From Gammaproteobacteria bacterium (lineage in GTDB: Bacteria > Pseudomonadota > Gammaproteobacteria > Xanthomonadales > SZUA-36): 24,000 nt of DNA. The stretch covers positions 1 through 24,000 of the forward strand of contig JAJFLA010000045.1 of assembly GCA_021772935.1 (NCBI GenBank), given 5' to 3'. Of this stretch, positions 7,231 through 22,568 are shown in pieces; the first letter of the stretch is position 1; every line of letters starts with the position of its first letter. Position numbers and translations under genes: made by a program. The notes under the pieces are model-generated. The model did no database searches, was not told the origin of the DNA, and was given only the letters and a program-made list of their open reading frames with translations.

Positions 7231-8109
7231 TCAGATGTTTTCCAAATACACTGTCGGTAATACCAAATTATTGATGCCAGCCATTTCCAGTTGATGTGCA
7301 AATTCTTCTATTTGCAATTGAGTCGCGTTTTCCCAGGTTTTAGCAATACCCTTAACACCGTGATGCTGGAAGGCGTTGATTCTGACCGTGGTCTGTTTGG
7401 GTAGTTGCAAAAGCGTCTCACAAAGATCAACCAGGTAATCCTGATAGTCCGTTTGATTCGGAATCAGCAGTAGACGGACTTCCGTGATTTTATTAGCGGC
7501 AGTCAGTAGTTTCAAAGATTGTTTTACCTTGCCGTTGCCAACACCTGTTAACACTCTGTGGCGTTTCGTATGCCACGATTTCAGATCCAGCAGTACCCCG
7601 TCAATATAAGGCAACAGCTTGCCCCAGCTTCTTTTGCCAAGTGAACCATTGGTATCTACAAGGCAGTTGAGGCTGTGTAACTCGGAGTCTGCTCTGAGCA
7701 TTGTCAGCAGATTGATAATAAAGGGCAGTTGAATCGTGGCTTCACCACCCGATAATGTAATGCCACTGATAAATGGCAGGTTTTCACGGATGAGTTCGAG
7801 CAACGTTGAAACGCTGTACAGGCTTGTTTTCGGGCTGGCAGATACCGGACAAATATCGAGGCATTTGTCACATTGAATGCAGACTTCGTTATTCCATTGA
7901 ATCTTGCCACCGCTATCCAGCTTCAATGCAGCTACTGGGCAACCCTCGATACAGTCTCCACAATGATTGCAAACACCCATCGTATAGGGGTTATGGCATG
8001 CTTGGCAGTGAAAGTTACAGCCATGAAAAAAGATGACCAGCCTGTTACCGGGGCCATCTACGCAGGAAAACGTCAGTATTTTATTGACTAAAGCCTGCTT
8101 CGAGTTCAC
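7231..8109 (-). CDS. yjjW: Glycyl-radical enzyme activating protein, YjjW-like (radical SAM with two ferredoxin-type clusters)
   Basis: The N-terminus VDGPGNRLVIFFHGCNFHCQACHNP carries the CxxxCxxC of PflA-type activases. Two 4Fe-4S ferredoxin motifs follow: CNHCGDCIEGCP and CIQCDKCLDICP. The SGGE motif is present. It lies immediately downstream of the YjjI-type gene. The GTG start at 8109 overlaps the yjjI 3' end by 29 nt. Confidence 0.85.
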   Translation of the reverse strand: MNSKQALVNKILTFSCVDGPGNRLVIFFHGCNFHCQACHNPYTMGVCNHCGDCIEGCPVAALKLDSGGKIQWNNEVCIQCDKCLDICPVSASPKTSLYSVSTLLELIRENLPFISGITLSGGEATIQLPFIINLLTMLRADSELHSLNCLVDTNGSLGKRSWGKLLPYIDGVLLDLKSWHTKRHRVLTGVGNGKVKQSLKLLTAANKITEVRLLLIPNQTDYQDYLVDLCETLLQLPKQTTVRINAFQHHGVKGIAKTWENATQLQIEEFAHQLEMAGINNLVLPTVYLENI

Positions 8110-9631
8110 GGCTGATCACCCTGGGTTTACGCTCCAGTATGCCAGTTTTTTCTGCGGCTTCGGCGCCCAGTATGGTTGTGTTTTTCCTGGATCCACTTTC
8201 ATTAAAGGCTTTGATATCTGAAAGTTTGACCATATAGCCTGTGACCCTGACCAGATCGTTTGAAGCAACGTTGGCCGTGAATTCTCTAAGCCCCAGGGAC
8301 AAGGCGCCTTTACAAAGCTGATACATGGCTTCCGGATTGGCTTTAACAGTTTCTTCAATCGTCAGTATGTCGCTGATACCGGAACTGTAATATTGATGAT
8401 GTGCTGCGATTGCCCTGATATGTTCAATCACATCAGGTTCACAGCCATATTGAATCCTGGTCCCTGGTGTAACGCCTTCATCAATGCTCAATCCAGCCTG
8501 CGAATGAAGCAACGCCCGGTTATTGAGGCCGTAGCGAACCGGTGTGCGCTTTACGATATCACTCAAGCTGGCAGAAATTTTATGTCCCAACTCATTTTGC
8601 CAAATACTGTGGCCGTAACTACCGGTATTTTCTTCAGTGGCTGCAAGGCAATTGACCGCTTCTGCCATTCCGTACACACCCCACATCGGCGCAAAGCGAT
8701 TCTCGTGTATCAGTCCTTCAGTAATCAAAAAGCTTTCAAAAAACCCGGATTGTTGATGCAAAAACTTTGTACGGGATTCAATCAGCTCAAACATTAAGCT
8801 GCTGTAATGAGGTAGTTGATTGGTAAAAAAATCCTCAACATCCGCTGACGCCTCTGCAAGCCGTTTCAAATTAAGTCTGACCAGCGTGTTTGCGCCACCA
8901 CCTAAAGGCAATACGTTGTAGCAACTAACGATACCAAAGCCTGTATCGTTAAAAGTTGCTTGATGCAGCGGAAAATTGGCCACATGGGGTTTGCTACATT
9001 CGCATATGTTGCTGGTAACCTGGCGTAACAAATCATCCGGTGTGACATCCGGGTCATACATAAACGTCAAATTTGGAACAATCTGCTTCAACTCAGCGTC
9101 GATACGTAACAGAACCCGGCAAATGATATTGTCGCTTGGGCCAATATTGGCGTGCACAAAAGCATCCGGAAAGGTTCGGTCAAGTTGAATCCAGAATAAC
9201 TTCAGCTTTTTGTAGATATCGCCTTCAGTAAGCCCGTCAACATAAGGCAGAAGCAGGCCATCCAGATAACCAAGAAATACCGGCAAATCGGTGACCGATG
9301 GCACATGATGATACAAAATCAATAAATGGTTGAGCGCCTCATCAATATCTGTGGCCGGCGACAACTCAAGGTAGTCTGAGCCCAACTCAAGAAAGCGTTC
9401 GTAATCGGGCAATACATACCTTGGTTTGTAGGGCGCATGCCCCTCCAGCATGTCACAAATGAAGCCTGCGGTCATCGCATCGCTAACGGCAGCCGACACC
9501 AATGGGAGGGGTAACAAGCTGTCAGCTGCCAAGGCAAGATTTCGGCTTTTTTGTCTGAACGACAACTTTGCTTCAGTCACAATATCCAGCAGTTGTTGTT
9601 CAAAATGCGTCATGTCATAACTATACGCCAT
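8081..9631 (-). CDS. yjjI: YjjI-family putative glycyl radical enzyme (DUF3029-type), substrate unknown
   Basis: This is a 516-aa ORF. It has a C-terminal glycyl-radical fingerprint, NDLVRVTGYMVKLSD (RVxGY). It is paired with a YjjW-type activase directly downstream, and its size and layout match the E. coli yjjI-yjjW pair. Confidence 0.8.
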   Translation of the reverse strand: MAYSYDMTHFEQQLLDIVTEAKLSFRQKSRNLALAADSLLPLPLVSAAVSDAMTAGFICDMLEGHAPYKPRYVLPDYERFLELGSDYLELSPATDIDEALNHLLILYHHVPSVTDLPVFLGYLDGLLLPYVDGLTEGDIYKKLKLFWIQLDRTFPDAFVHANIGPSDNIICRVLLRIDAELKQIVPNLTFMYDPDVTPDDLLRQVTSNICECSKPHVANFPLHQATFNDTGFGIVSCYNVLPLGGGANTLVRLNLKRLAEASADVEDFFTNQLPHYSSLMFELIESRTKFLHQQSGFFESFLITEGLIHENRFAPMWGVYGMAEAVNCLAATEENTGSYGHSIWQNELGHKISASLSDIVKRTPVRYGLNNRALLHSQAGLSIDEGVTPGTRIQYGCEPDVIEHIRAIAAHHQYYSSGISDILTIEETVKANPEAMYQLCKGALSLGLREFTANVASNDLVRVTGYMVKLSDIKAFNESGSRKNTTILGAEAAEKTGILERKPRVISRELEAGFSQ

Positions 9632-15064: not shown

Positions 15065-16189
15065 ATGAGTTATGAATTCATCGAAGGCAACGAGGCCGTT
15101 GCACGTGCGGCAATGAAGGCTGGCTGCAATTTTTTTGCGGGCTATCCAATCACCCCGGCGTCGTCGATCTTTCAAAGTATGCTTGACTTGATACCGTCAA
15201 CCGGGGGCATGGCTATCCAGGCTGAAGACGAAATCGCCGCCATTGGTTTTTGTATCGGTGCTGCGATGGCGGGTCGCAAAGTGATGACGGCCACCAGCGG
15301 CCCAGGCATCAGTCTGTATAGCGAGAACCTTGGACTTGCCACGATCGGCGAGACACCCATGGTGATCATTAATGTACAGCGACAAGGACCGGCCACAGGC
15401 TCAGCAACCAAGGGTGCGGAAGGTGATATTCAATTCACACGCTGGGGTACATCTGGCGGACTCCCTGTCATTGCCCTCAGCCCGGCATCTGTCGCGGAGG
15501 CCTATGAGCTTACTTATCATGCATTCAACCTGGCTGAACGATTCCGTGTGCCCGTCACACTACTGTCGAATAAAGAAGTTGGTCTTACCCGTGAAAGAGT
15601 TGACCTTGATGCGATTAAGCTACCTCCGCGTCGGGAACGTATCAAAGTAGCTGAGGATGAAGCCTTTGTTCCACATGGCTTCCAGTCATCCGCGGATGTA
15701 CCGGTGATGGCAGACATCGGTGGTGAACATATTGTTCGTTATACGACCTCGACGCATGACCAGGTGGCCAAGCTGACCACCAATCCAGAAATTATTGGGG
15801 ATATGCTGGCGCACTATAACAACAAGATCATCAACCACGTCGATGAAATTACGCGGGTAAAAGAAGATTTTGAAACCGGTGCCCAGACGCTGTTTATCAG
15901 CTATGGCGTTACATCACGATCTGTCGCAGCCGCGGTTGAAACGGTGAGGCGTAAAGGCAGGAAGATCTCGTCATTGGTGATACAGACACTTTGGCCGGTG
16001 CCGGAGAAAGTGATTCTTGAGGCAATGCAAGGTATCAAAAAAGTGATCGTACCGGAAATGAACCTCGGACAGTACCTGCTGGAGATTCAACGTCTGGTAC
16101 CTGCAAACGTAGAACTGGTTGGAATTAACAAGATGAACACCACGCTGATCTCACCCAGGCAGATCATCGAGGAAGGGGGCTTGTTGTGA
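15065..16189 (+). CDS. 2-oxoacid:ferredoxin oxidoreductase, alpha subunit
   Basis: The N-terminus GNEAVARAAMKAGCNFFAGYPITPASSI is the POR_N signature. GPGISL and the domain II pattern are also present. The stop overlaps the next gene's start (GTGA at 16186-16189). Confidence 0.9.
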   Translation: MSYEFIEGNEAVARAAMKAGCNFFAGYPITPASSIFQSMLDLIPSTGGMAIQAEDEIAAIGFCIGAAMAGRKVMTATSGPGISLYSENLGLATIGETPMVIINVQRQGPATGSATKGAEGDIQFTRWGTSGGLPVIALSPASVAEAYELTYHAFNLAERFRVPVTLLSNKEVGLTRERVDLDAIKLPPRRERIKVAEDEAFVPHGFQSSADVPVMADIGGEHIVRYTTSTHDQVAKLTTNPEIIGDMLAHYNNKIINHVDEITRVKEDFETGAQTLFISYGVTSRSVAAAVETVRRKGRKISSLVIQTLWPVPEKVILEAMQGIKKVIVPEMNLGQYLLEIQRLVPANVELVGINKMNTTLISPRQIIEEGGLL

Positions 16190-17535
16190 CCACTGCAGCA
16201 ATCGCTACTTATCTCGATACCGAGAACATTGCGCTACCCTATTGCCCCGGTTGTGGCCATAAGAGCATCGTCAAGCAGCTCGACAAGGCCCTGGTAAAGC
16301 TGCAATTAGATCCAAAAAAAGTAGTTATTGTTACCGACATCGGCTGTATTGGTCTGGCTGATCGCAATTTCATGACCAACACATTCCATGGCTTGCACGG
16401 ACGATCGATTACCTATGCATGCGGCGTCAAACTCGCCCGACCGGAACTGACAGTTATCGCTGTCAAAGGCGATGGGGCTTGCGGTATCGGTGGCACACAT
16501 CTGCTTAATGTCGCACGTCGTAATATTGGTATTACGCTCCTTATCGCCAATAATTTTAACTACGGTATGACCGGTGGCCAACACTCGGTCACCACACCCG
16601 ATGATGGCGTGACACCGACGACACCGTGGGGCAATTTCGAGCAGCCGATGGATCTCTGTGCCACAAGCTCGGCAGCGGGCGCTGCATGGGTACATCGGGC
16701 AACATCGTTTGACCGTGACCTGCCCGATGTACTCGCCGATGCGATCAGCCAGGAAGGCTTCGCCATGGTTGATATTTGGGAGTTGTGTAGCGCCTATTAC
16801 CGACCTCGAAATGATTTTCGTCGAGCTGACATGATGGCCATGCTGACGGAGAACCAATTCAAGCCCGGTCGGATCACTGACAAACCTCGCAAAGAATATA
16901 GTGCGCGGTACTTTGAGACCTATCAGGCTGACAGGAATGTGCGAGAAGATAGGTCAAAAATATCCCTCCAGTTTGAACACCGGCTTGATCGTCAAATGGG
17001 CATTATCATCGCCGGTAGTGCAGGCCAGAAAATCAAGTCCATCGCGACCTTATTGGGCCACGCGGCAATTGCCAGCGGGCTGCATGCCACACAGAAGGAT
17101 GACTATCCGATCACGGTGATGAGCGGCCATTCACTGGCAGAGGTCATCCTTAGTCCGCATGTCATCGAATACACTGGTATTGATGAACCCGCTATCGTCG
17201 TAGTGATTTCGATGGATGGAGTAAAGCAAGCGGGTGCTTGCATCCGCGCGCTGCCGGAAACCAGTACCATCTATGCCGAAGAGTCGTTAGAACTGCCCGA
17301 TACCAATGCCCAGGTACGTCGCTTTGCCTTTATCGAAGCCGCTAAGCATGTTGGCAAACTCTCGCTGGCAACGGTCGCTATCGGTACAGTGTTGCAGGAC
17401 ACCGGTCCGTTCCCACTTGCCGCGTTCACCGCCGCGATCCAAAAAAATCAAAAACCAGCTATCGCTGAAGTCAATCTCAAAGCCATATTAGCGGGCGCGG
17501 CCCTGGTAAACCCCAATGCCGCCATAGGTCTTTGA
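16186..17535 (+). CDS. 2-oxoacid:ferredoxin oxidoreductase, beta (TPP-binding) subunit fused to a gamma-like domain
   Basis: The N-terminal half has the cluster Cys motif YCPGCGH, DIGC, and TPP motif GDGACGIGG...IANNFNYGMTGGQ. The C-terminal half, from about residue 265, has the gamma/POR-domain pattern GIIIAGSAGQKIKSIATLLGHAAIASGLHATQKDDYPITVMSGHSLAEVILSP. Confidence 0.85.
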   Translation: MTTAAIATYLDTENIALPYCPGCGHKSIVKQLDKALVKLQLDPKKVVIVTDIGCIGLADRNFMTNTFHGLHGRSITYACGVKLARPELTVIAVKGDGACGIGGTHLLNVARRNIGITLLIANNFNYGMTGGQHSVTTPDDGVTPTTPWGNFEQPMDLCATSSAAGAAWVHRATSFDRDLPDVLADAISQEGFAMVDIWELCSAYYRPRNDFRRADMMAMLTENQFKPGRITDKPRKEYSARYFETYQADRNVREDRSKISLQFEHRLDRQMGIIIAGSAGQKIKSIATLLGHAAIASGLHATQKDDYPITVMSGHSLAEVILSPHVIEYTGIDEPAIVVVISMDGVKQAGACIRALPETSTIYAEESLELPDTNAQVRRFAFIEAAKHVGKLSLATVAIGTVLQDTGPFPLAAFTAAIQKNQKPAIAEVNLKAILAGAALVNPNAAIGL

Positions 17536-17546
17536 ACCTATTGCCA

Positions 17547-18653
17547 CTATCTTTTTTTCATGATGGGTTTTTCAACATAATAGTAACTGATTGATGCCAA
17601 CATCAAGGTTCCCACAAGTGTCACAACAAGTGCCAAAACACTCAATAATGGAGATTTCCACTCACTGAGGATGGTTCGATTCAACAGCATCAATAAGGGG
17701 TAATGCCACAAGTAAATTCCAAAGCTGATATTTCCCAACCATATCATTGGTTTACTGGATAGCCACTGAAACCCTTTTAGAGGACGTATCAGTGAAAACA
17801 TGAGCACACAGATAATCAATGCCATGATCGGATTCCAGACTCCAAGCATCCAGTGCCCGCTCCAGTAGCTGTCAAGATTTGATCGTAACCAGACCATCAT
17901 GAGGTAAGACAGGACAACTGCTACTGTCAGCAAAAGGTAACGCAGCGGCTGGGTAGGAAGACGTTTGCTGGCGAGAAGGTATGCCAGGGCTACACCGGAA
18001 CAAAATGTAGAGAGACCGCCCGGAACCGCGTCAAGTACCGCTTGATGTGCCGAGTAGTTTTCGCCAGCATACAACCACATCACGCTATATCTCCAGCCAA
18101 TCGTTAACACAATCGCACCGATAAATACGCTTAACCACCCAATGCGATCTGAAAGCAATACCAAAAACGGTAGTAGCAGATAGAAACTCAACTCAACCGG
18201 TAGAGTCCACCAGACGGCATTCATCGGAGTAGTCATCCAGGGTGGTAAATTGACCCACAACAGAACGTGCCTGACGATATCAGCGCTCGCAGTTAACTGA
18301 GGCATGAAAGAAAACACCTGGCTCAACATCAAAAGCAGTAATAGTTGTAACCAGTACGCGGGATATATTCTCAAGCCCCGTCTTAACCAGAATCGTAGTA
18401 TTCTCGTCTGATTGAGTTCTTGTTTTAATAGTTGGGAGGCTAATAAGTATCCGGATAATACAAAAAAGACCGGCACACCCAACCAGCCAAAATCCACCAA
18501 CATACCTAGATCCCAGTCAGTGTTTAATCCGGTAATAACCATATGCGCACGCGCTTGGGGGAAAAAACCTATACCTGAGCCCCAATGAAAAAGCAGCACG
18601 GCCAGTGCCGCACTGGCTCTGAAACCATGCAAGACCGGGTTAAAATTTTGCAT
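17547..18653 (-). CDS. Membrane acyltransferase family 3 (OafA/YrhL-like O-acyltransferase)
   Basis: The N-terminus LHGFRASAALAVLLFHW is typical of acyltransferase_3. About 10 TM helices run throughout the 368-aa ORF. Confidence 0.85.
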   Translation of the reverse strand: MQNFNPVLHGFRASAALAVLLFHWGSGIGFFPQARAHMVITGLNTDWDLGMLVDFGWLGVPVFFVLSGYLLASQLLKQELNQTRILRFWLRRGLRIYPAYWLQLLLLLMLSQVFSFMPQLTASADIVRHVLLWVNLPPWMTTPMNAVWWTLPVELSFYLLLPFLVLLSDRIGWLSVFIGAIVLTIGWRYSVMWLYAGENYSAHQAVLDAVPGGLSTFCSGVALAYLLASKRLPTQPLRYLLLTVAVVLSYLMMVWLRSNLDSYWSGHWMLGVWNPIMALIICVLMFSLIRPLKGFQWLSSKPMIWLGNISFGIYLWHYPLLMLLNRTILSEWKSPLLSVLALVVTLVGTLMLASISYYYVEKPIMKKR

Positions 18654-18689
18654 CTCAATCTACTTTATTCAGAATAAATCAGAAGCACC

Positions 18690-19544
18690 TTAATTTGTGC
18701 TGTCTGGTTTCAAGAACCTCAGCGTCATGCGGTCTGATTCACCGATGCTGCGGTAATGTTGTGAACACCGCACTGCCTCAGCCTCATCGGTCATGTTACG
18801 GCAATAACGCAAGCTTGGTGGTAACGACCATACACCGGTGGGGTGATCCTTTGTATCACTTGGATTGGCGTTGATTTCTGATTTTTCCAGCAACTTGAAG
18901 CCGGCATCCTGCGCTGCTGATATTACGTAAGCTTCACTGACATAACCGCTGAGCTTCATCAACTCAATATCGGCATCATGCCTTGCGCGGTGTTCAACCA
19001 GACCCAACACTCCACCTGGTTTGAGTGCGGTAAACATAGCCGCAAACACACCTGCCGCATAATCACCCTTAATCCAGTTGTGCACATTTCGAAACGTCAG
19101 CACCATGTCCAACGAGCCCGGTGGAGCAATTTCTGTGTCTTCAGGTATCGAAAGCGAGCTGACGATAACTTTGTCGAAGCGTTGTGGATCGTTACTGAAC
19201 GTGTTGTTGAGCTTCGTAGCCATATTCTTTCGCCATTTAGGCGTTCTTCGCGCACTCAAAGAGTAGCCCGCTGCGTAGTACTTGCCTTCTTCTTTAAGAT
19301 AGGGTGCAAGAATTTCTGACCACCAGCCTGAACTTGGCCAGATCTCTGCCACCGACATGTTTGGTCTGATGCCAAAAAACTCCAGTACCGCCTGTGGATG
19401 ACGGGCCACATCGCGTTGGGCAAAGGTTACATTGCGACGGCTGTCTGCAACCGCCGCTGTGAGGGCGTCATCTGATGCGAGCAGATCAGCCTGCACCAAC
19501 AGCGCAATAATGATAAAAACAATTGATATGCTGAATGGCTTCAT
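18690..19544 (-). CDS. Signal-peptide-bearing class I SAM-dependent methyltransferase (COG4798-like), function unknown
   Basis: An AAGGAAA SD lies upstream. The signal peptide is MKPFSISIVFIIIALLVQADLLA. The methyltransferase-fold segments are MSVAEIWPSSGWWSEILAPYL and LKPGGVLGLVEH. Confidence 0.7.
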   Translation of the reverse strand: MKPFSISIVFIIIALLVQADLLASDDALTAAVADSRRNVTFAQRDVARHPQAVLEFFGIRPNMSVAEIWPSSGWWSEILAPYLKEEGKYYAAGYSLSARRTPKWRKNMATKLNNTFSNDPQRFDKVIVSSLSIPEDTEIAPPGSLDMVLTFRNVHNWIKGDYAAGVFAAMFTALKPGGVLGLVEHRARHDADIELMKLSGYVSEAYVISAAQDAGFKLLEKSEINANPSDTKDHPTGVWSLPPSLRYCRNMTDEAEAVRCSQHYRSIGESDRMTLRFLKPDSTN

Positions 19545-19645: not shown

Positions 19646-20479
19646 TTACAGACCGTGTGCTGGTTGCTCTTTGACAAATACCATTCGGCAGTATTGGATT
19701 GTACCGTCATTAACCAGTTGCTTCACTTGGTCAAGCAAAGACTTCATTTGTTTGATATCGAGACTGGCCAACACATGTGGGACCTCGTCGATAGTGCTAA
19801 GCATTTTCCCAAGCCCTGCCATCAACAAACGACGTTTCAAATCGGCAATCAAGTCTAACAATGACTGGCTTTCGTCTTTATAACTGACGACTGTAAAACC
19901 AGCATCGATAAACAAGCGCTGATAGGCTTGTGCTGTTTTTGCACTCTCCAGACAAGTCCACGGTACGATCAACTCATGTAGCTCCGTCGGAAGCATGCCA
20001 TTGAGCACCATATCCGATATACCCACCTGTCCACCCTTGTTAAGCACTCGAAAAAACTCTTTAACAACCTGTTGCTGCTTGTCAAACGTGCTCACTGCAC
20101 ACTCACATATCAAGTGGTCAAACAAACCATCGGGAAATGGCAAAGACGCCGCACTACCTTGTAAGTATTCAGGCGACACCGGCAAATGAGCCGCTTGCTC
20201 GACAGCACGATTAATGTTTAATTGGCTGAAGTCGAGACCGGTTGCAAGGCCTGAATAATCTTTGGCGATTACCTGAACTGATGTACCCATACCACAGGCT
20301 ACATCCAACACCCGGTCACCCGCTTTAATGTTCAGACTATCCAGCAAGCGACGGCTCAAACCCATACCACCCGGATGAAAACTTTCGCCTAAAATGGTCT
20401 GTACCCAATCTTGTTCATAGAATTGACTGCAACACGAAGCAGTAGTGGTTGCATTGCTGGTCATGTTGTCGTTAAGCAT
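19646..20479 (-). CDS. ArsM-like (arsenite-methyltransferase-related) class I SAM-dependent methyltransferase
   Basis: The ATG at 20479 overlaps the upstream stop (TAATG). SAM motif I is VLDVACGMG. Cysteines sit at ArsM-like positions: N-terminal ASCCSQFY, ICECAVSTFDK (compare ISNCVINL) and VPWTCLESA (compare WVGCLAGA). GESFHPGG replaces the canonical LGCGNP. Confidence 0.65.
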   Translation of the reverse strand: MLNDNMTSNATTTASCCSQFYEQDWVQTILGESFHPGGMGLSRRLLDSLNIKAGDRVLDVACGMGTSVQVIAKDYSGLATGLDFSQLNINRAVEQAAHLPVSPEYLQGSAASLPFPDGLFDHLICECAVSTFDKQQQVVKEFFRVLNKGGQVGISDMVLNGMLPTELHELIVPWTCLESAKTAQAYQRLFIDAGFTVVSYKDESQSLLDLIADLKRRLLMAGLGKMLSTIDEVPHVLASLDIKQMKSLLDQVKQLVNDGTIQYCRMVFVKEQPAHGL

Positions 20480-21798
20480 TACAAATTTCCAGTTGAACGA
20501 TTGATCGCGTTGTATTCGCAAAAAGAAACCGGTTTGCCTTCTGTCGAGATAATATGAACACAGCATTTGTCGATGCGATCCTGATCGTAGCTGTACGCAT
20601 CCATGAAGGGCTTGATACCGATGGCAAATAGCGGATTCCAGTCTTCTGAATTGTGCTCACCAGGTTCAGCCGGCAACGAGGCGATTACTTCCAACATCGC
20701 GTCAACGACTTTGTTGCTCATGTCGGCAACCGCGGATGCCTCAACCACTTTTTGCAAAAGACCTGAAAAACTGCCGGCGCTGTCGAAGGTATCAGATACA
20801 GCCGCGATCAGTTGGCTGACTCCTTCGTTCGCCCAATCTTTGTAGCGTGGTAAAAAACGGGAAACCGGGACCAGGCCGTCAGCACTTCGAATGGCAACTG
20901 CCATACTGAAACAATTTGGATCAGAGCAGGGAATCGGGCTGAAGTCGTCCTGCTTAAAAACACCACCACTCTGCTCTGAAATCAATGTGGCAACATCGGC
21001 CAGTGTAAGCCGATCATCTTGCATTGGATTGTCATACCGTCCTGAATACATCGCCGGTTGAATCATGACTTTGCGTACACTTTGGGTTTTTGATTGAGCA
21101 AAATTCAAAAACGCACCGACCTCTGTGTCGTTGATTCCACGTGTCAGTGTCATAACTGGAACTGTATTGATTCCGAGTTTTTCGCAGTTTTCCAGTGCAC
21201 GTATTTTGATCCCACCAAGATCCCGTCCCCGAAGTGCCTTGTGGGTGTCGCTGGCAAAACCATCAAATTGCAAGTAAACGGAAACACAAGGCCCGTAAGC
21301 GGCCAGACGTTTGGCAAATTCCAGCTTCGCCAAATAGAGCCCATTGGTATTAACATAAACCTGCTTAATGCCCTTGGCGACTGCCATTTCTACGATCTCG
21401 AAAAACTGCGGATGGATCGTCGGCTCACCACCCGAGAGCTGAATCAAATCAGCTTCGCCTTTCCCTATTGCCAATAACCCGTCGATCGTACTTTCAAATT
21501 TGTCGAGCGTCATGAAAGTCTTATTGTGGGGAGATGAGCCTGCATAACAGGTTGGACAAGTCAAATTGCAGCTTTGAGTGATCTCAATCAACATGTTGCA
21601 ACTATGATTTTCGACCTGGTCACCACAATGCTGTCCTGGTCCACAACAACCGGCAATTGCCTCGACCTTAGGATCAGCAACGTAATAATGCTTTACATCG
21701 GATGCGAGCAATGCTGAAAAATCACCATGTTCAGGGCATATTTTCAGCATAAAAACCTTGCGATCGCGTTCGATAACATCGGCCGATACCTTACGCAA
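20479..21798 (-). CDS. Cysteine-rich radical SAM enzyme (COG1964 / MJ0619-like architecture); the true N-terminus lies upstream of the listed TTG start
   Basis: The radical SAM motif is SCNLTCPTC and the SAM-binding motif is SGGEPT. Extra Cys motifs are GCCGPGQHC..HSC and, at the C-terminus, DKCCVH...FCEYN. The conserved zinc-ribbon-like ICPTC...ICPEHG begins upstream of TTG 21798. The frame stays open to 21915 but has no ATG or GTG. Confidence 0.85.
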   Translation of the reverse strand: MRKVSADVIERDRKVFMLKICPEHGDFSALLASDVKHYYVADPKVEAIAGCCGPGQHCGDQVENHSCNMLIEITQSCNLTCPTCYAGSSPHNKTFMTLDKFESTIDGLLAIGKGEADLIQLSGGEPTIHPQFFEIVEMAVAKGIKQVYVNTNGLYLAKLEFAKRLAAYGPCVSVYLQFDGFASDTHKALRGRDLGGIKIRALENCEKLGINTVPVMTLTRGINDTEVGAFLNFAQSKTQSVRKVMIQPAMYSGRYDNPMQDDRLTLADVATLISEQSGGVFKQDDFSPIPCSDPNCFSMAVAIRSADGLVPVSRFLPRYKDWANEGVSQLIAAVSDTFDSAGSFSGLLQKVVEASAVADMSNKVVDAMLEVIASLPAEPGEHNSEDWNPLFAIGIKPFMDAYSYDQDRIDKCCVHIISTEGKPVSFCEYNAINRSTGNL

Positions 21799-22036
21799 GC
21801 ATGTCGGACAAATCGAAATCGTGGTTTTTATCAGGCGATCATAATCGCGATCAAAAGTAGCAATGTTTTTCTCATGTGTAGGTGTTAAGTCAGCTAATAA
21901 AATTTTCGGAGTCCCCTATAGTATGGTTTTGCCCTGGGTGAAATATGGCAATGATTGTAATAAAAACTGCTTCTACGGTGACAGACCGCGCAACCGGGGG
22001 ATTTATGACGTATTGTTCCATTTTCTTATGAAAGTA

Positions 22037-22048: not shown

Positions 22049-22133
22049 GGGATTGCAATCTCAGTGATGTCTTTTTACCATGAGCTTCCTATCTGCCAAT
22101 GAATACCTGCATACTTCAAAAGTTGACCGGATT

Positions 22134-22568
22134 ATGAAAATGTCAAAAAAGAACATGACTCAAATCAGTGCACTAAAAGCCTGGGAACTGATGCAAAAAG
22201 AACCCAATGCGGCCTTTATCGATGTACGTTCAGATATGGAATATTTGTTCATTGGTCATGCCATTGACTCAGTCAATATACCCTGGATAAACGAGCCCGA
22301 CTGGGAGGTGAATCCAAATTTCGTCAGAGATGTCAGAAAGCTGATTTTAGGTGGCGTAATCGACACACCTGAACATCATGCCATACCTGTTTTTCTCATT
22401 TGCCGCAGCGGCAAGCGATCTGAAGAGGCGGGGCATCTGCTGGTGGAAAACGGCTTTCATCGCGTTTACAACATCGAGGATGGTTTCGAAGGTGAGTTGG
22501 ATGAAAAACACCAACGCAGCACCTTGGGCGGATGGCGCTTTGACAACTTACCCTGGCAGCAGTGTTAG
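22134..22568 (+). CDS. Single-domain rhodanese-like sulfurtransferase
   Basis: The active-site loop is FLICRSGKRSEEA (CRxGxR[ST]). Rhodanese-fold patterns AFIDVRSDMEY and GGWRFDNLPW are present. The start is uncertain among 22134, 22140 and 22155. The ORF opens at 22080, but that extension has no homology logic. Confidence 0.8.
   Translation: MKMSKKNMTQISALKAWELMQKEPNAAFIDVRSDMEYLFIGHAIDSVNIPWINEPDWEVNPNFVRDVRKLILGGVIDTPEHHAIPVFLICRSGKRSEEAGHLLVENGFHRVYNIEDGFEGELDEKHQRSTLGGWRFDNLPWQQC

Follow-up and report, generated by a model that had tools for sequence, protein, structure and literature searches.

A conserved radical SAM–methyltransferase gene pair in a gammaproteobacterial contig, sister to Tes and to the TrsS/DVU_1556 cassette

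Organization of the locus

The window analyzed here is a 24,000-nucleotide stretch of DNA from a Gammaproteobacteria bacterium (contig JAJFLA010000045.1, positions 1 to 24,000), and our subject is a pair of minus-strand genes near its right end that encode a radical S-adenosylmethionine (SAM) enzyme and, immediately downstream, a methyltransferase (Table 1). The locus is a conserved two-enzyme module belonging to an uncharacterised family that is sister both to Tes (GDGT-MAS) and to the TrsS/DVU_1556 cassette. The stop codon of the radical SAM gene overlaps the methyltransferase start codon, and the two genes are translationally coupled. A preliminary description of this DNA gave the coordinates of the overlap exactly, and all of the radical SAM and methyltransferase motifs that it quoted are present on the minus strand. 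Its upper boundary for the pair (coordinate 21880) requires correction, as the ATG close to it (21875–21873) is out of the radical SAM frame, which remains open to 21915.

Table 1. Features of the radical SAM–methyltransferase locus and its neighbours
Feature	Coordinates	Strand	Remarks
Radical SAM gene	20479..21915	-	frame open from 21915 down to TAA at 20481-20479
Rubredoxin-like metal site CPTC...CPEHG, C22-x2-C25-x20-C46-x2-H49	21727..21810	-	
N-terminal auxiliary-cluster motif (putative) GCCGPGQHCGDQVENHSC, C76-C77-x5-C83-x6-H90-x-C92	21598..21648	-	
Radical SAM cluster motif CNLTCPTC, C102-x3-C106-x2-C109	21547..21570	-	
SGGEPT SAM-binding motif, S147-T152	21418..21435	-	invariant
PIPCSDPNCF motif, C316 and C321	20911..20928	-	
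C-terminal cluster region (putative) GIKPFMDA...DKCCVH...FCEYN (K421, C437, C438, I441, C452)	20518..20613	-	
TAATG, radical SAM stop overlapping methyltransferase start	20477..20481	-	
Methyltransferase gene	19646..20479	-	ATG at 20479-20477, stop at 19646, 277 aa
N-terminal vicinal cysteines SCC, C16-C17	20429..20436	-	
FHPGG, H35-P36-G37-G38 (within GESFHPGG)	20366..20377	-	invariant
CEC, C125-E126-C127 (in ICECAVSTFDK)	20099..20107	-	
C176 (PWTC, in VPWTCLESA)	19952..19954	-	
284-aa signal-peptide protein, downstream, co-directional	18690..19544	-	Methyltransf_23 20.7 bits, below cut-off
Acyltransferase_3 membrane protein, downstream, co-directional	17547..18653	-	not a conserved partner
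Single-domain rhodanese, divergently transcribed	22080..22568	+	not recurrent in the family

The two genes form a functional unit

A genome scan recovered 80 loci from Planctomycetota, Myxococcota, Verrucomicrobiota, Gammaproteobacteria and Gemmatimonadota, of which 62 have at least 2 kb of downstream sequence. The neighbouring position of the two genes, which the preliminary description had proposed to compare across genomes, is kept in 59 of these 62 loci (about 95%), where a co-directional methyltransferase gene lies no more than 1.5 kb downstream of the radical SAM gene. The genes are directly adjacent or overlapping in about 46 loci, with start/stop overlaps or small gaps, and in about 12 Lysobacterales-type loci a DUF547 gene is located between them. 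Fusions of the two proteins are present among the relatives of P0274, a query that is itself close to TrsS (P0480 of 724 aa, P0451, and P0398). From the adjacency, the overlapping codons in many loci, and the fusions in the sister clade we conclude that the radical SAM and methyltransferase genes form a functional unit.

In about 11 loci of Myxococcota, Gemmatimonadota or Planctomycetota, a CobW/COG0523 GTPase domain containing the motif GCFCC is fused to the N-terminus of the methyltransferase, a hint that the module is supplied with a metal, possibly zinc. These CobW fusions occur in a divergent subclade (e.g. L061, 11317–13122, and L072, 3234–5114). At the loci encoding radical SAM–methyltransferase fusions (L085–L087, 8001–10175) a gene for a CCG/HdrD-like iron-sulfur protein precedes the fused gene and a second radical SAM gene follows it. 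Two paralogous copies of the cassette are present in each of three metagenome-assembled genomes (L007/L059 in CAZXLW01, L016/L027 in CAYNWT01, and L073/L076 in JBBSFT01), apparently with different partners; in one from a Pirellulaceae member there is one copy with a disulfide reductase gene and one with DUF547.

The radical SAM enzyme belongs to the Tes/GDGT-MAS/TrsS superfamily

The radical SAM protein matches the Pfam families Radical_SAM (8.3e-23) and Zn_ribbon_HMPTM (2.9e-18) and is a full-length member of the Tes/GDGT-MAS/TrsS superfamily. The two best NCBIfam models are TrsS (NF045646; 288.9 bits) and Tes (NF045702; 240.3 bits), with scores below the respective cut-offs of 490 and 450, and an orthologue (L043) also falls under the Tes cut-off with 247.7 bits. 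A search against the PDB matches GDGT-MAS (7TOL; E 1.8e-63), and Foldseek comparison of an AlphaFold model (predicted local distance difference test score, pLDDT, of 81) recovers 7TOL as the sole full-length structural match (template modelling scores of 0.74/0.70, with 27% identity in the structural alignment); the matches that follow it cover the radical SAM core only. The likeness to Tes (MJ0619; 7TOL/7TOM) thus includes the four-domain architecture over the full length, and the CX3CX2C, SGGEPT, and C-terminal FMDA...CC.H...FC.YN motifs are common to both. A database search yields 5878 relatives at E below 1e-10, the closest of which are from Planctomycetota, Myxococcota, Verrucomicrobiota, Gammaproteobacteria and Gemmatimonadota.

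Four metal sites of Tes have matches by motif in the window protein, namely the rubredoxin-type iron site, the N-terminal auxiliary [4Fe-4S] cluster, the SAM-cleaving cluster, and the C-terminal [4Fe-4S] cluster, and these are predicted here from the sequence. The CX2CX20CX2H spacing of the first is identical to that of the GDGT-MAS iron site, C9X2C12X20C33X2H36 (PMC9433317). Among 33 homologues (52–78% identity, at least four phyla) C22, C25 and C46 do not vary and H49 is kept in 90% or more, and all of the cysteines of the radical SAM protein are either invariant or at least 90% kept. The GCCGPGQHCGDQVENHSC motif aligns with NGCPYDCGLCPNH of 7TOL, in which the N-terminal [4Fe-4S] ligands are C73-x3-C77-x2-C80 plus a histidine (PMC9433317). 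The window arrangement (CCx5Cx6HxC) is a variant of the Tes CX3CX2C+His motif in which the third Tes cysteine position is not conserved, and C77 and C92 are available as candidate alternative ligands at this putative cluster.

At the C-terminal end, DKCCVH...FCEYN aligns with RCCIHY...PFCTYN of GDGT-MAS (7TOL), where three cysteines and a labile Met439 hold the C-terminal [4Fe-4S] cluster (PMC9433317). Both Met439 and Tyr459 of Tes are reported to be completely conserved in 1000 archaeal homologues (PMC9433317), whereas the window family has an invariant lysine (K421) at the position of Met439 and isoleucine or valine (I441 in the window) at that of Tyr459. C316 is invariant in the window's family and missing in some TrsS-like proteins. 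These two substitutions together with the extra cysteines C77 and C316 are the family-specific features of the enzyme, which differs from Tes further in being almost always paired with a cysteine-rich methyltransferase and in being found in bacteria, largely of aerobic or marine lineages. The protein ends ...FCEYNAINRSTGNL, with no RCCLKC tail.

The preliminary description called two vicinal-cysteine motifs of this protein additional. In a broader sample of the superfamily, with archaeal relatives, one fused protein, and two proteins named TrsS by their sources among its members, C83, C92, C321, C437 and C452 are invariant and C76 and C438 nearly so. This conservation argues that the motifs are inherited rather than metalloid-specific, and the cysteine-rich motifs are superfamily features that fit the metal sites of Tes, with which they align.

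The methyltransferase is related to ArsM and to the DVU_1556 family

The methyltransferase is a class I SAM enzyme whose relatives include ArsM and the DVU_1556 family. It matches Methyltransf_25, Methyltransf_11 and Methyltransf_31 in Pfam, and its best NCBIfam model is the DVU_1556 family (NF045667; 138.8 bits against a cut-off of 155), a near miss that is consistent with a sister clade; the L043 methyltransferase behaves similarly (137.8 bits). The next model, arsenite methyltransferase (NF008823), gives 89 bits where its cut-off is 263, and other ArsM-type models are interleaved below DVU_1556 with generic models of the UbiE/MenG type. In a PDB sequence search phosphoethanolamine N-methyltransferases score best (65 bits) and ArsM (5EVJ) scores 31.5 bits. 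The closest folds to an AlphaFold2 model (pLDDT 85.9) are AtmM, RebM, PMT and TleD, and with no ArsM in the top 50 we rejected filing the protein as ArsM.

In 71 sequences the HPGG motif of the methyltransferase is invariant or almost so, and four of its cysteines (C16, C17, C127 and C176) are conserved at 99–100%, the conservation among orthologues that the preliminary description had wished to see examined, and the persistence of the cysteine features of both proteins in their homologues indicates that they are not there by chance. The ArsM-type protein encoded in Gemmataceae CJuql4 (L002) provides a useful comparison, as BLASTP and MAFFT alignments place C127 at its SNC cysteine and C176 at its LWSGC cysteine. 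The SNC and GC cysteines of ArsM are established to bind As(III). Equivalents of C127 and C176 also occur in the methyltransferase part of the fused proteins and in those DVU_1556 methyltransferases that neighbour true TrsS. The N-terminal vicinal cysteines are in the same place in the L002 protein and are absent from the DVU_1556 methyltransferases next to true TrsS.

Further points of likeness to ArsM (NF008823, 5EVJ) are the class I fold, the N-terminal CC with an aromatic and then an acidic residue after it, and a cysteine-rich C-terminal tail in some family members; the window methyltransferase differs in having neither the additional domain of ArsM nor an ars operon context. The invariant FHPGG shares an alignment stretch with ...YGCGDP of the L002 ArsM-type protein, although the alignment is gapped there and residues are not matched one to one. 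The placement of ArsM-like cysteines in the preliminary description is supported: C127 and C176 align and the N-terminal CC is kept. FHPGG has no counterpart to the YGCG cysteine, and the arsenite methyltransferase score is far under its cut-off. The departure of GESFHPGG from ArsM was rightly noted. We regard the protein as ArsM-like at its predicted active-site thiols, and it is not ArsM by any model threshold.

The Fuerstiella-type methyltransferases (L043, 11369–12238; L017, 11369–12238) have a cysteine-rich tail, PCGCDDESCC, which resembles the tail DGCDERPCC of the L002 ArsM-type protein (17849–19030). The window methyltransferase does not have a tail of this type.

Relationship to the TrsS/DVU_1556 cassette

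Among named families, TrsS and DVU_1556 give the two proteins their highest scores, and this pair is already catalogued in NCBIfam. The preliminary description's term 'undescribed' thus holds insofar as the family is uncharacterised, but not for the existence of the closest named pair; a literature search found no paper on DVU_1556. The cassettes have in common the adjacent genes, the fused proteins near P0274, the C127/C176 cysteines, and a partner of the disulfide-reductase type. They differ in that the true TrsS clusters L083 and L084 have the opposite order, with the methyltransferase upstream of TrsS, and in that TrsS-like proteins keep methionine where the window family has lysine and DVU_1556 methyltransferases lack the N-terminal CC. 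When the TrsS model was run on 20 representatives of neighbouring clades (50%-cluster), none reached 490 bits and the best was P0274 with 454 bits, through which the true TrsS members were reached.

Both true TrsS clusters encode a CCG/HdrD-like protein and DUF7479. The one from Clostridium tyrobutyricum (L083; JAHHUY010000003.1, 422–13435) adds C_GCAxxG_C_C, an AMP ligase, XdhC, and a molybdenum hydroxylase, a context that suggests a cofactor-related role for the true TrsS clade. Further cofactor genes in L083 are MoCF_biosynth, NTP_transf_3/HD nucleotidyl transferase, His_Phos_1, and a xanthine-dehydrogenase-family enzyme. The TrsS partners CCG/HdrD-like protein, DUF7479, C_GCAxxG_C_C and AMP ligase are absent from the window, and none was found in the neighbour surveys of the 80 family loci, one of which covered the 25 commonest of 135 families. 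What all the clades share is a radical SAM enzyme together with a thiol-rich methyltransferase and a protein of some disulfide-reductase type.

Recurrent partners in other genomes

In 23 of 54 loci the gene that directly follows the methyltransferase encodes a flavin adenine dinucleotide (FAD)-dependent disulfide oxidoreductase of the GR/MerA type. It scores 619.8 bits against the PRK06370.1-3 model (cut-off 620), and in L088–L090 the radical SAM enzyme, methyltransferase, and FAD reductase genes make up compact operons. A DUF547 protein is encoded near the pair in 21 of 57 loci, and a literature search on this domain returned only incidental plant and phage mentions. A Coq4-like protein is present in 10 loci and an MMPL/HAE3 transporter in 10 loci.

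Arsenic genes and the module

Arsenic genes lie near the pair in one of the 80 loci, that of Gemmataceae CJuql4 (L002; LR594584.1), where an arsenosugar-type cluster surrounds the pair (1945–2688 and 16107–19030). It includes ArsS (452 bits against a cut-off of 300), TIGR04282 and TIGR04283 transferases that score above their cut-offs, and the ArsM-type methyltransferase described above. Searching all loci by phmmer with the L002 ArsS, ArsM and DUF2064 proteins returned only L002, besides a weak 36-bit ArsM-type match in L071 that is 7 kb from the pair. Pfam searches of the 149 nearest non-recurrent neighbours gave no family with more than two members and no ars family among the 25 listed, and there are no ars genes in L088–L090 or in the window, which, as the preliminary description stated, does not contain a classic ars operon. 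Recurrent linkage to arsenic genes was accordingly rejected, the arsenosugar set being present at a single locus. The profile comparison with arsenic enzymes put forward in the preliminary description is equally negative, with 39.7 bits for the radical SAM protein against ArsS (TIGR04167; cut-off 300), no ArsL among the best 25 of its 56 NCBIfam matches, and the ArsM scores given above. Of the organo-metalloid pathway proposed there, the pairing stands, but neither an arsenic-family match nor a general arsenic context does.

A proposed mechanism

We tentatively propose, by analogy and at somewhat less than an even chance, that the module places a heteroatom on an unactivated carbon and then methylates that heteroatom. 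As in Tes, a 5'-deoxyadenosyl radical generated by the radical SAM enzyme would remove hydrogen from a carbon that is not activated, in a hydrophobic substrate such as a lipid or polyprenyl-type tail. A heteroatom at the C-terminal cluster or beside it would capture the carbon radical. The methyltransferase would hold the heteroatom between its thiols and methylate it, after which a dedicated disulfide reductase, encoded beside the pair in many relatives and absent from the window, would re-reduce the thiols. Heteroatom capture is proposed because of the homology to Tes, for which formation of a carbon-sulfur adduct on the C-terminal cluster is documented (PMC9433317; review PMC13459092). The thiol/disulfide theme is drawn from the FAD reductase after the methyltransferase and in the compact operons, from the CCG/HdrD-like protein in the TrsS clusters, and from the CobW fusion. 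Cluster-derived sulfur, in what would be a split methylthiolation, ranks as the likeliest heteroatom and is nonetheless a doubtful one; arsenic and selenium together come after it and are unlikely, and the remaining probability lies with chemistries that we do not name.

MiaB and RimO trap a carbon radical with sulfur carried on an auxiliary [4Fe-4S] cluster and use SAM to methylate that sulfur. The analogy is functional only, as both steps take place in one protein of a different radical SAM family, whereas in the window methylation would fall to a separate class I methyltransferase. The ArsL/ArsM pair of arsinothricin synthesis and the ArsS/ArsM pair of arsenosugar synthesis similarly combine a radical SAM enzyme with a thiol-rich methyltransferase for making and methylating a carbon-heteroatom bond. 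Their radical SAM enzymes are unrelated to that of the window beyond the core, and ArsL and ArsS transfer SAM-derived groups, whereas a Tes-type enzyme abstracts hydrogen from its substrate.

Several observations weigh against heteroatom insertion and methylation as the function of the module. The mechanism is an argument by analogy, and no member of the family has a known product, substrate, or activity. The closest folds to the methyltransferase are those of small-molecule O-, N- and C-methyltransferases rather than of ArsM, and its cysteines could instead make up a structural or catalytic zinc site. The window itself has no disulfide reductase, DUF547, or other recurrent partner, and the rhodanese adjoins the pair only here, so that it lends no general support to sulfur chemistry. 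True TrsS is accompanied by molybdenum-hydroxylase maturation genes, pointing to cofactor rather than lipid chemistry in that clade. Finally, the window radical SAM gene lacks a canonical start codon, which leaves its expression putative.

The start of the radical SAM gene

No in-frame ATG, GTG or TTG was found upstream of the invariant CPTC in the window's radical SAM frame, and in a DNA alignment with the closest orthologues a TAG (21918–21916) occupies the position of the TTG start of the Pirellulaceae orthologues. The probable start is the ATT at 21903–21901, which has AGGGGA 8 nt upstream and gives a product of 474 aa. An open reading frame lister chose TTG at 21798, and the public annotation (P0001; 423 aa) starts at ATG 21750, such that two putative metal ligands of the enzyme would be lost. 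A scan for promoters and terminators gave nothing above shuffled expectation. No signal of horizontal transfer was found, the G+C content of the pair (0.465–0.467) being inside the range of the neighbouring genes.

Alternative explanations

The full-length homology to GDGT-MAS is also what would be expected of a true bacterial tetraether or membrane-spanning lipid synthase, with the methyltransferase adding carbon methyl branches to the lipid. It has been hypothesized that bacterial Tes homologues make brGDGTs (branched glycerol dialkyl glycerol tetraethers; PMC8941075; PMC11868695), and this hypothesis was all that a literature search on Tes homologues in Planctomycetes returned. The occasional MMPL lipid exporter, Coq4-like and acyltransferase neighbours and the weak CMAS-family matches of the methyltransferase would agree with such a role. 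We consider it unlikely, given that the protein falls well short of the Tes cut-off and has Lys and Ile in place of Met439 and Tyr459, and that methylation of carbon would leave the disulfide reductase, the fused CobW domain, and the four invariant cysteines with their ArsM-like placement unexplained; moreover, many hosts, Pirellulaceae, Puniceicoccaceae and Lysobacterales among them, are not known to produce membrane-spanning lipids. A second possibility takes its cue from the true TrsS cassette, and would have the pair modify a cofactor or metal site rather than a lipid. The rank of TrsS and DVU_1556 among the NCBIfam matches, the MoCF_biosynth, molybdenum hydroxylase, XdhC and NTP_transf_3 genes of L083, and the CobW-type metallochaperone fused to the methyltransferase in one subclade all speak for it. 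Yet both proteins are under the cut-offs of those families, and the neighbour surveys place neither the CCG protein, DUF7479, C_GCAxxG_C_C, AMP ligase and XdhC beside the window family nor any recurrent candidate client enzyme nearby. Cofactor maturation is improbable as the function of the pair.

The pair could alternatively constitute an organo-arsenical pathway, with the radical SAM enzyme joining carbon to arsenic and its ArsM-like partner methylating the arsenic, for example in arsenic-containing lipids. In this direction point the methyltransferase cysteines at two conserved ArsM positions and the N-terminal CC, the standing of ArsM-type models as its next-best families, the naming of some family members as arsenite methyltransferase by their sources, the presence of the pair inside a genuine arsenosugar cluster in Gemmataceae CJuql4, and the similarity between the Fuerstiella and ArsM tails. 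ArsS is a radical SAM precedent for forming a C-As bond. ArsL is another, and its C-terminal RCCLKC tail binds As(III), as the preliminary description had said of a CC-containing motif (bioRxiv 10.1101/2024.02.01.577332). The CC motif of the window's radical SAM enzyme is however of the Tes type and not the ArsL tail, the arsenic genes are near the pair at that single locus, with no ars family among the 25 listed for the nearest neighbours, in the compact operons or in the window, the methyltransferase scores poorly against both the arsenite methyltransferase model and 5EVJ, and its invariant FHPGG is without cysteine where the ArsM-type protein has ...YGCGDP. Arsenic is thus a possible but improbable reading, and not the default.

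A further explanation concerns only this genome, in which loss of the start codon would have left the radical SAM gene inactive or poorly translated and the module decaying. The TAG in place of the TTG, the lack of a usual start codon ahead of CPTC, and the absence of the recurrent partner genes from the contig fit this view. The in-frame residues between the TAG and CPTC are still similar to the N-terminus of the orthologues, and all 109 residues that are invariant in 32 homologues are intact in the window copy (109/109); we therefore regard an ATT start, or an assembly error in a single base, as more probable than gene decay. The ATT has a good Shine-Dalgarno sequence available, and an assembly error is equally possible, which makes decay rather unlikely.

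Implications

Solving the function of the module would extend Tes-type chemistry past C-C coupling, and could show a new route by which bonds between inert carbons and heteroatoms are formed and methylated. A more specific and very doubtful version of the proposed mechanism is that heteroatom-terminated lipids are the product, the Tes-type enzyme joining the terminal carbon of a tail to arsenic or selenium held by thiols and the ArsM-like partner methylating it. This would give lipids of the omega-dimethylarsinoyl type from acyl or isoprenoid tails. We know of no genes that make the arsenic-containing fatty acids and hydrocarbons found in marine food webs, and the module would then be the missing bacterial route to them; a literature search on arsenolipids together with radical SAM enzymes found only the ArsL papers.

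A more immediate consequence concerns surveys of brGDGT producers. An environmental survey counted bacterial Tes homologues at E below 1e-30 and at least 30% identity (PMC11868695, following PMC8941075), and the window clade is found by Tes-homologue searches at the E-value level and is near the identity threshold (27% to 7TOL). The clade may therefore inflate such inferences, since its score is below the Tes cut-off, residues conserved in Tes are missing from it, and its gene context is another one.

Other genes in the window

The 284-aa secreted protein and the acyltransferase_3 gene located downstream may be co-transcribed with the pair. The former is found elsewhere only in L055, about 8 kb off and on the opposite strand, and neither of these nor the rhodanese recurs across loci, such that all three were rejected as conserved partners. 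A hemerythrin-domain gene is present close upstream of the pair in L088 (9289–9915) and in L001 (7162–7557), which are unrelated contigs, the latter being the window's own; this adjacency may be a coincidence or may reflect a link to oxygen or iron sensing. Elsewhere in the window there is a YjjI-like glycyl radical enzyme gene (7231–9631, minus strand; Pfam E 5.6e-207) overlapped by that of a radical SAM activase, and a 2-oxoacid:ferredoxin oxidoreductase is encoded at 15065–17535. The glycyl radical enzyme and the oxidoreductase indicate that the host is an anaerobe or facultative anaerobe.

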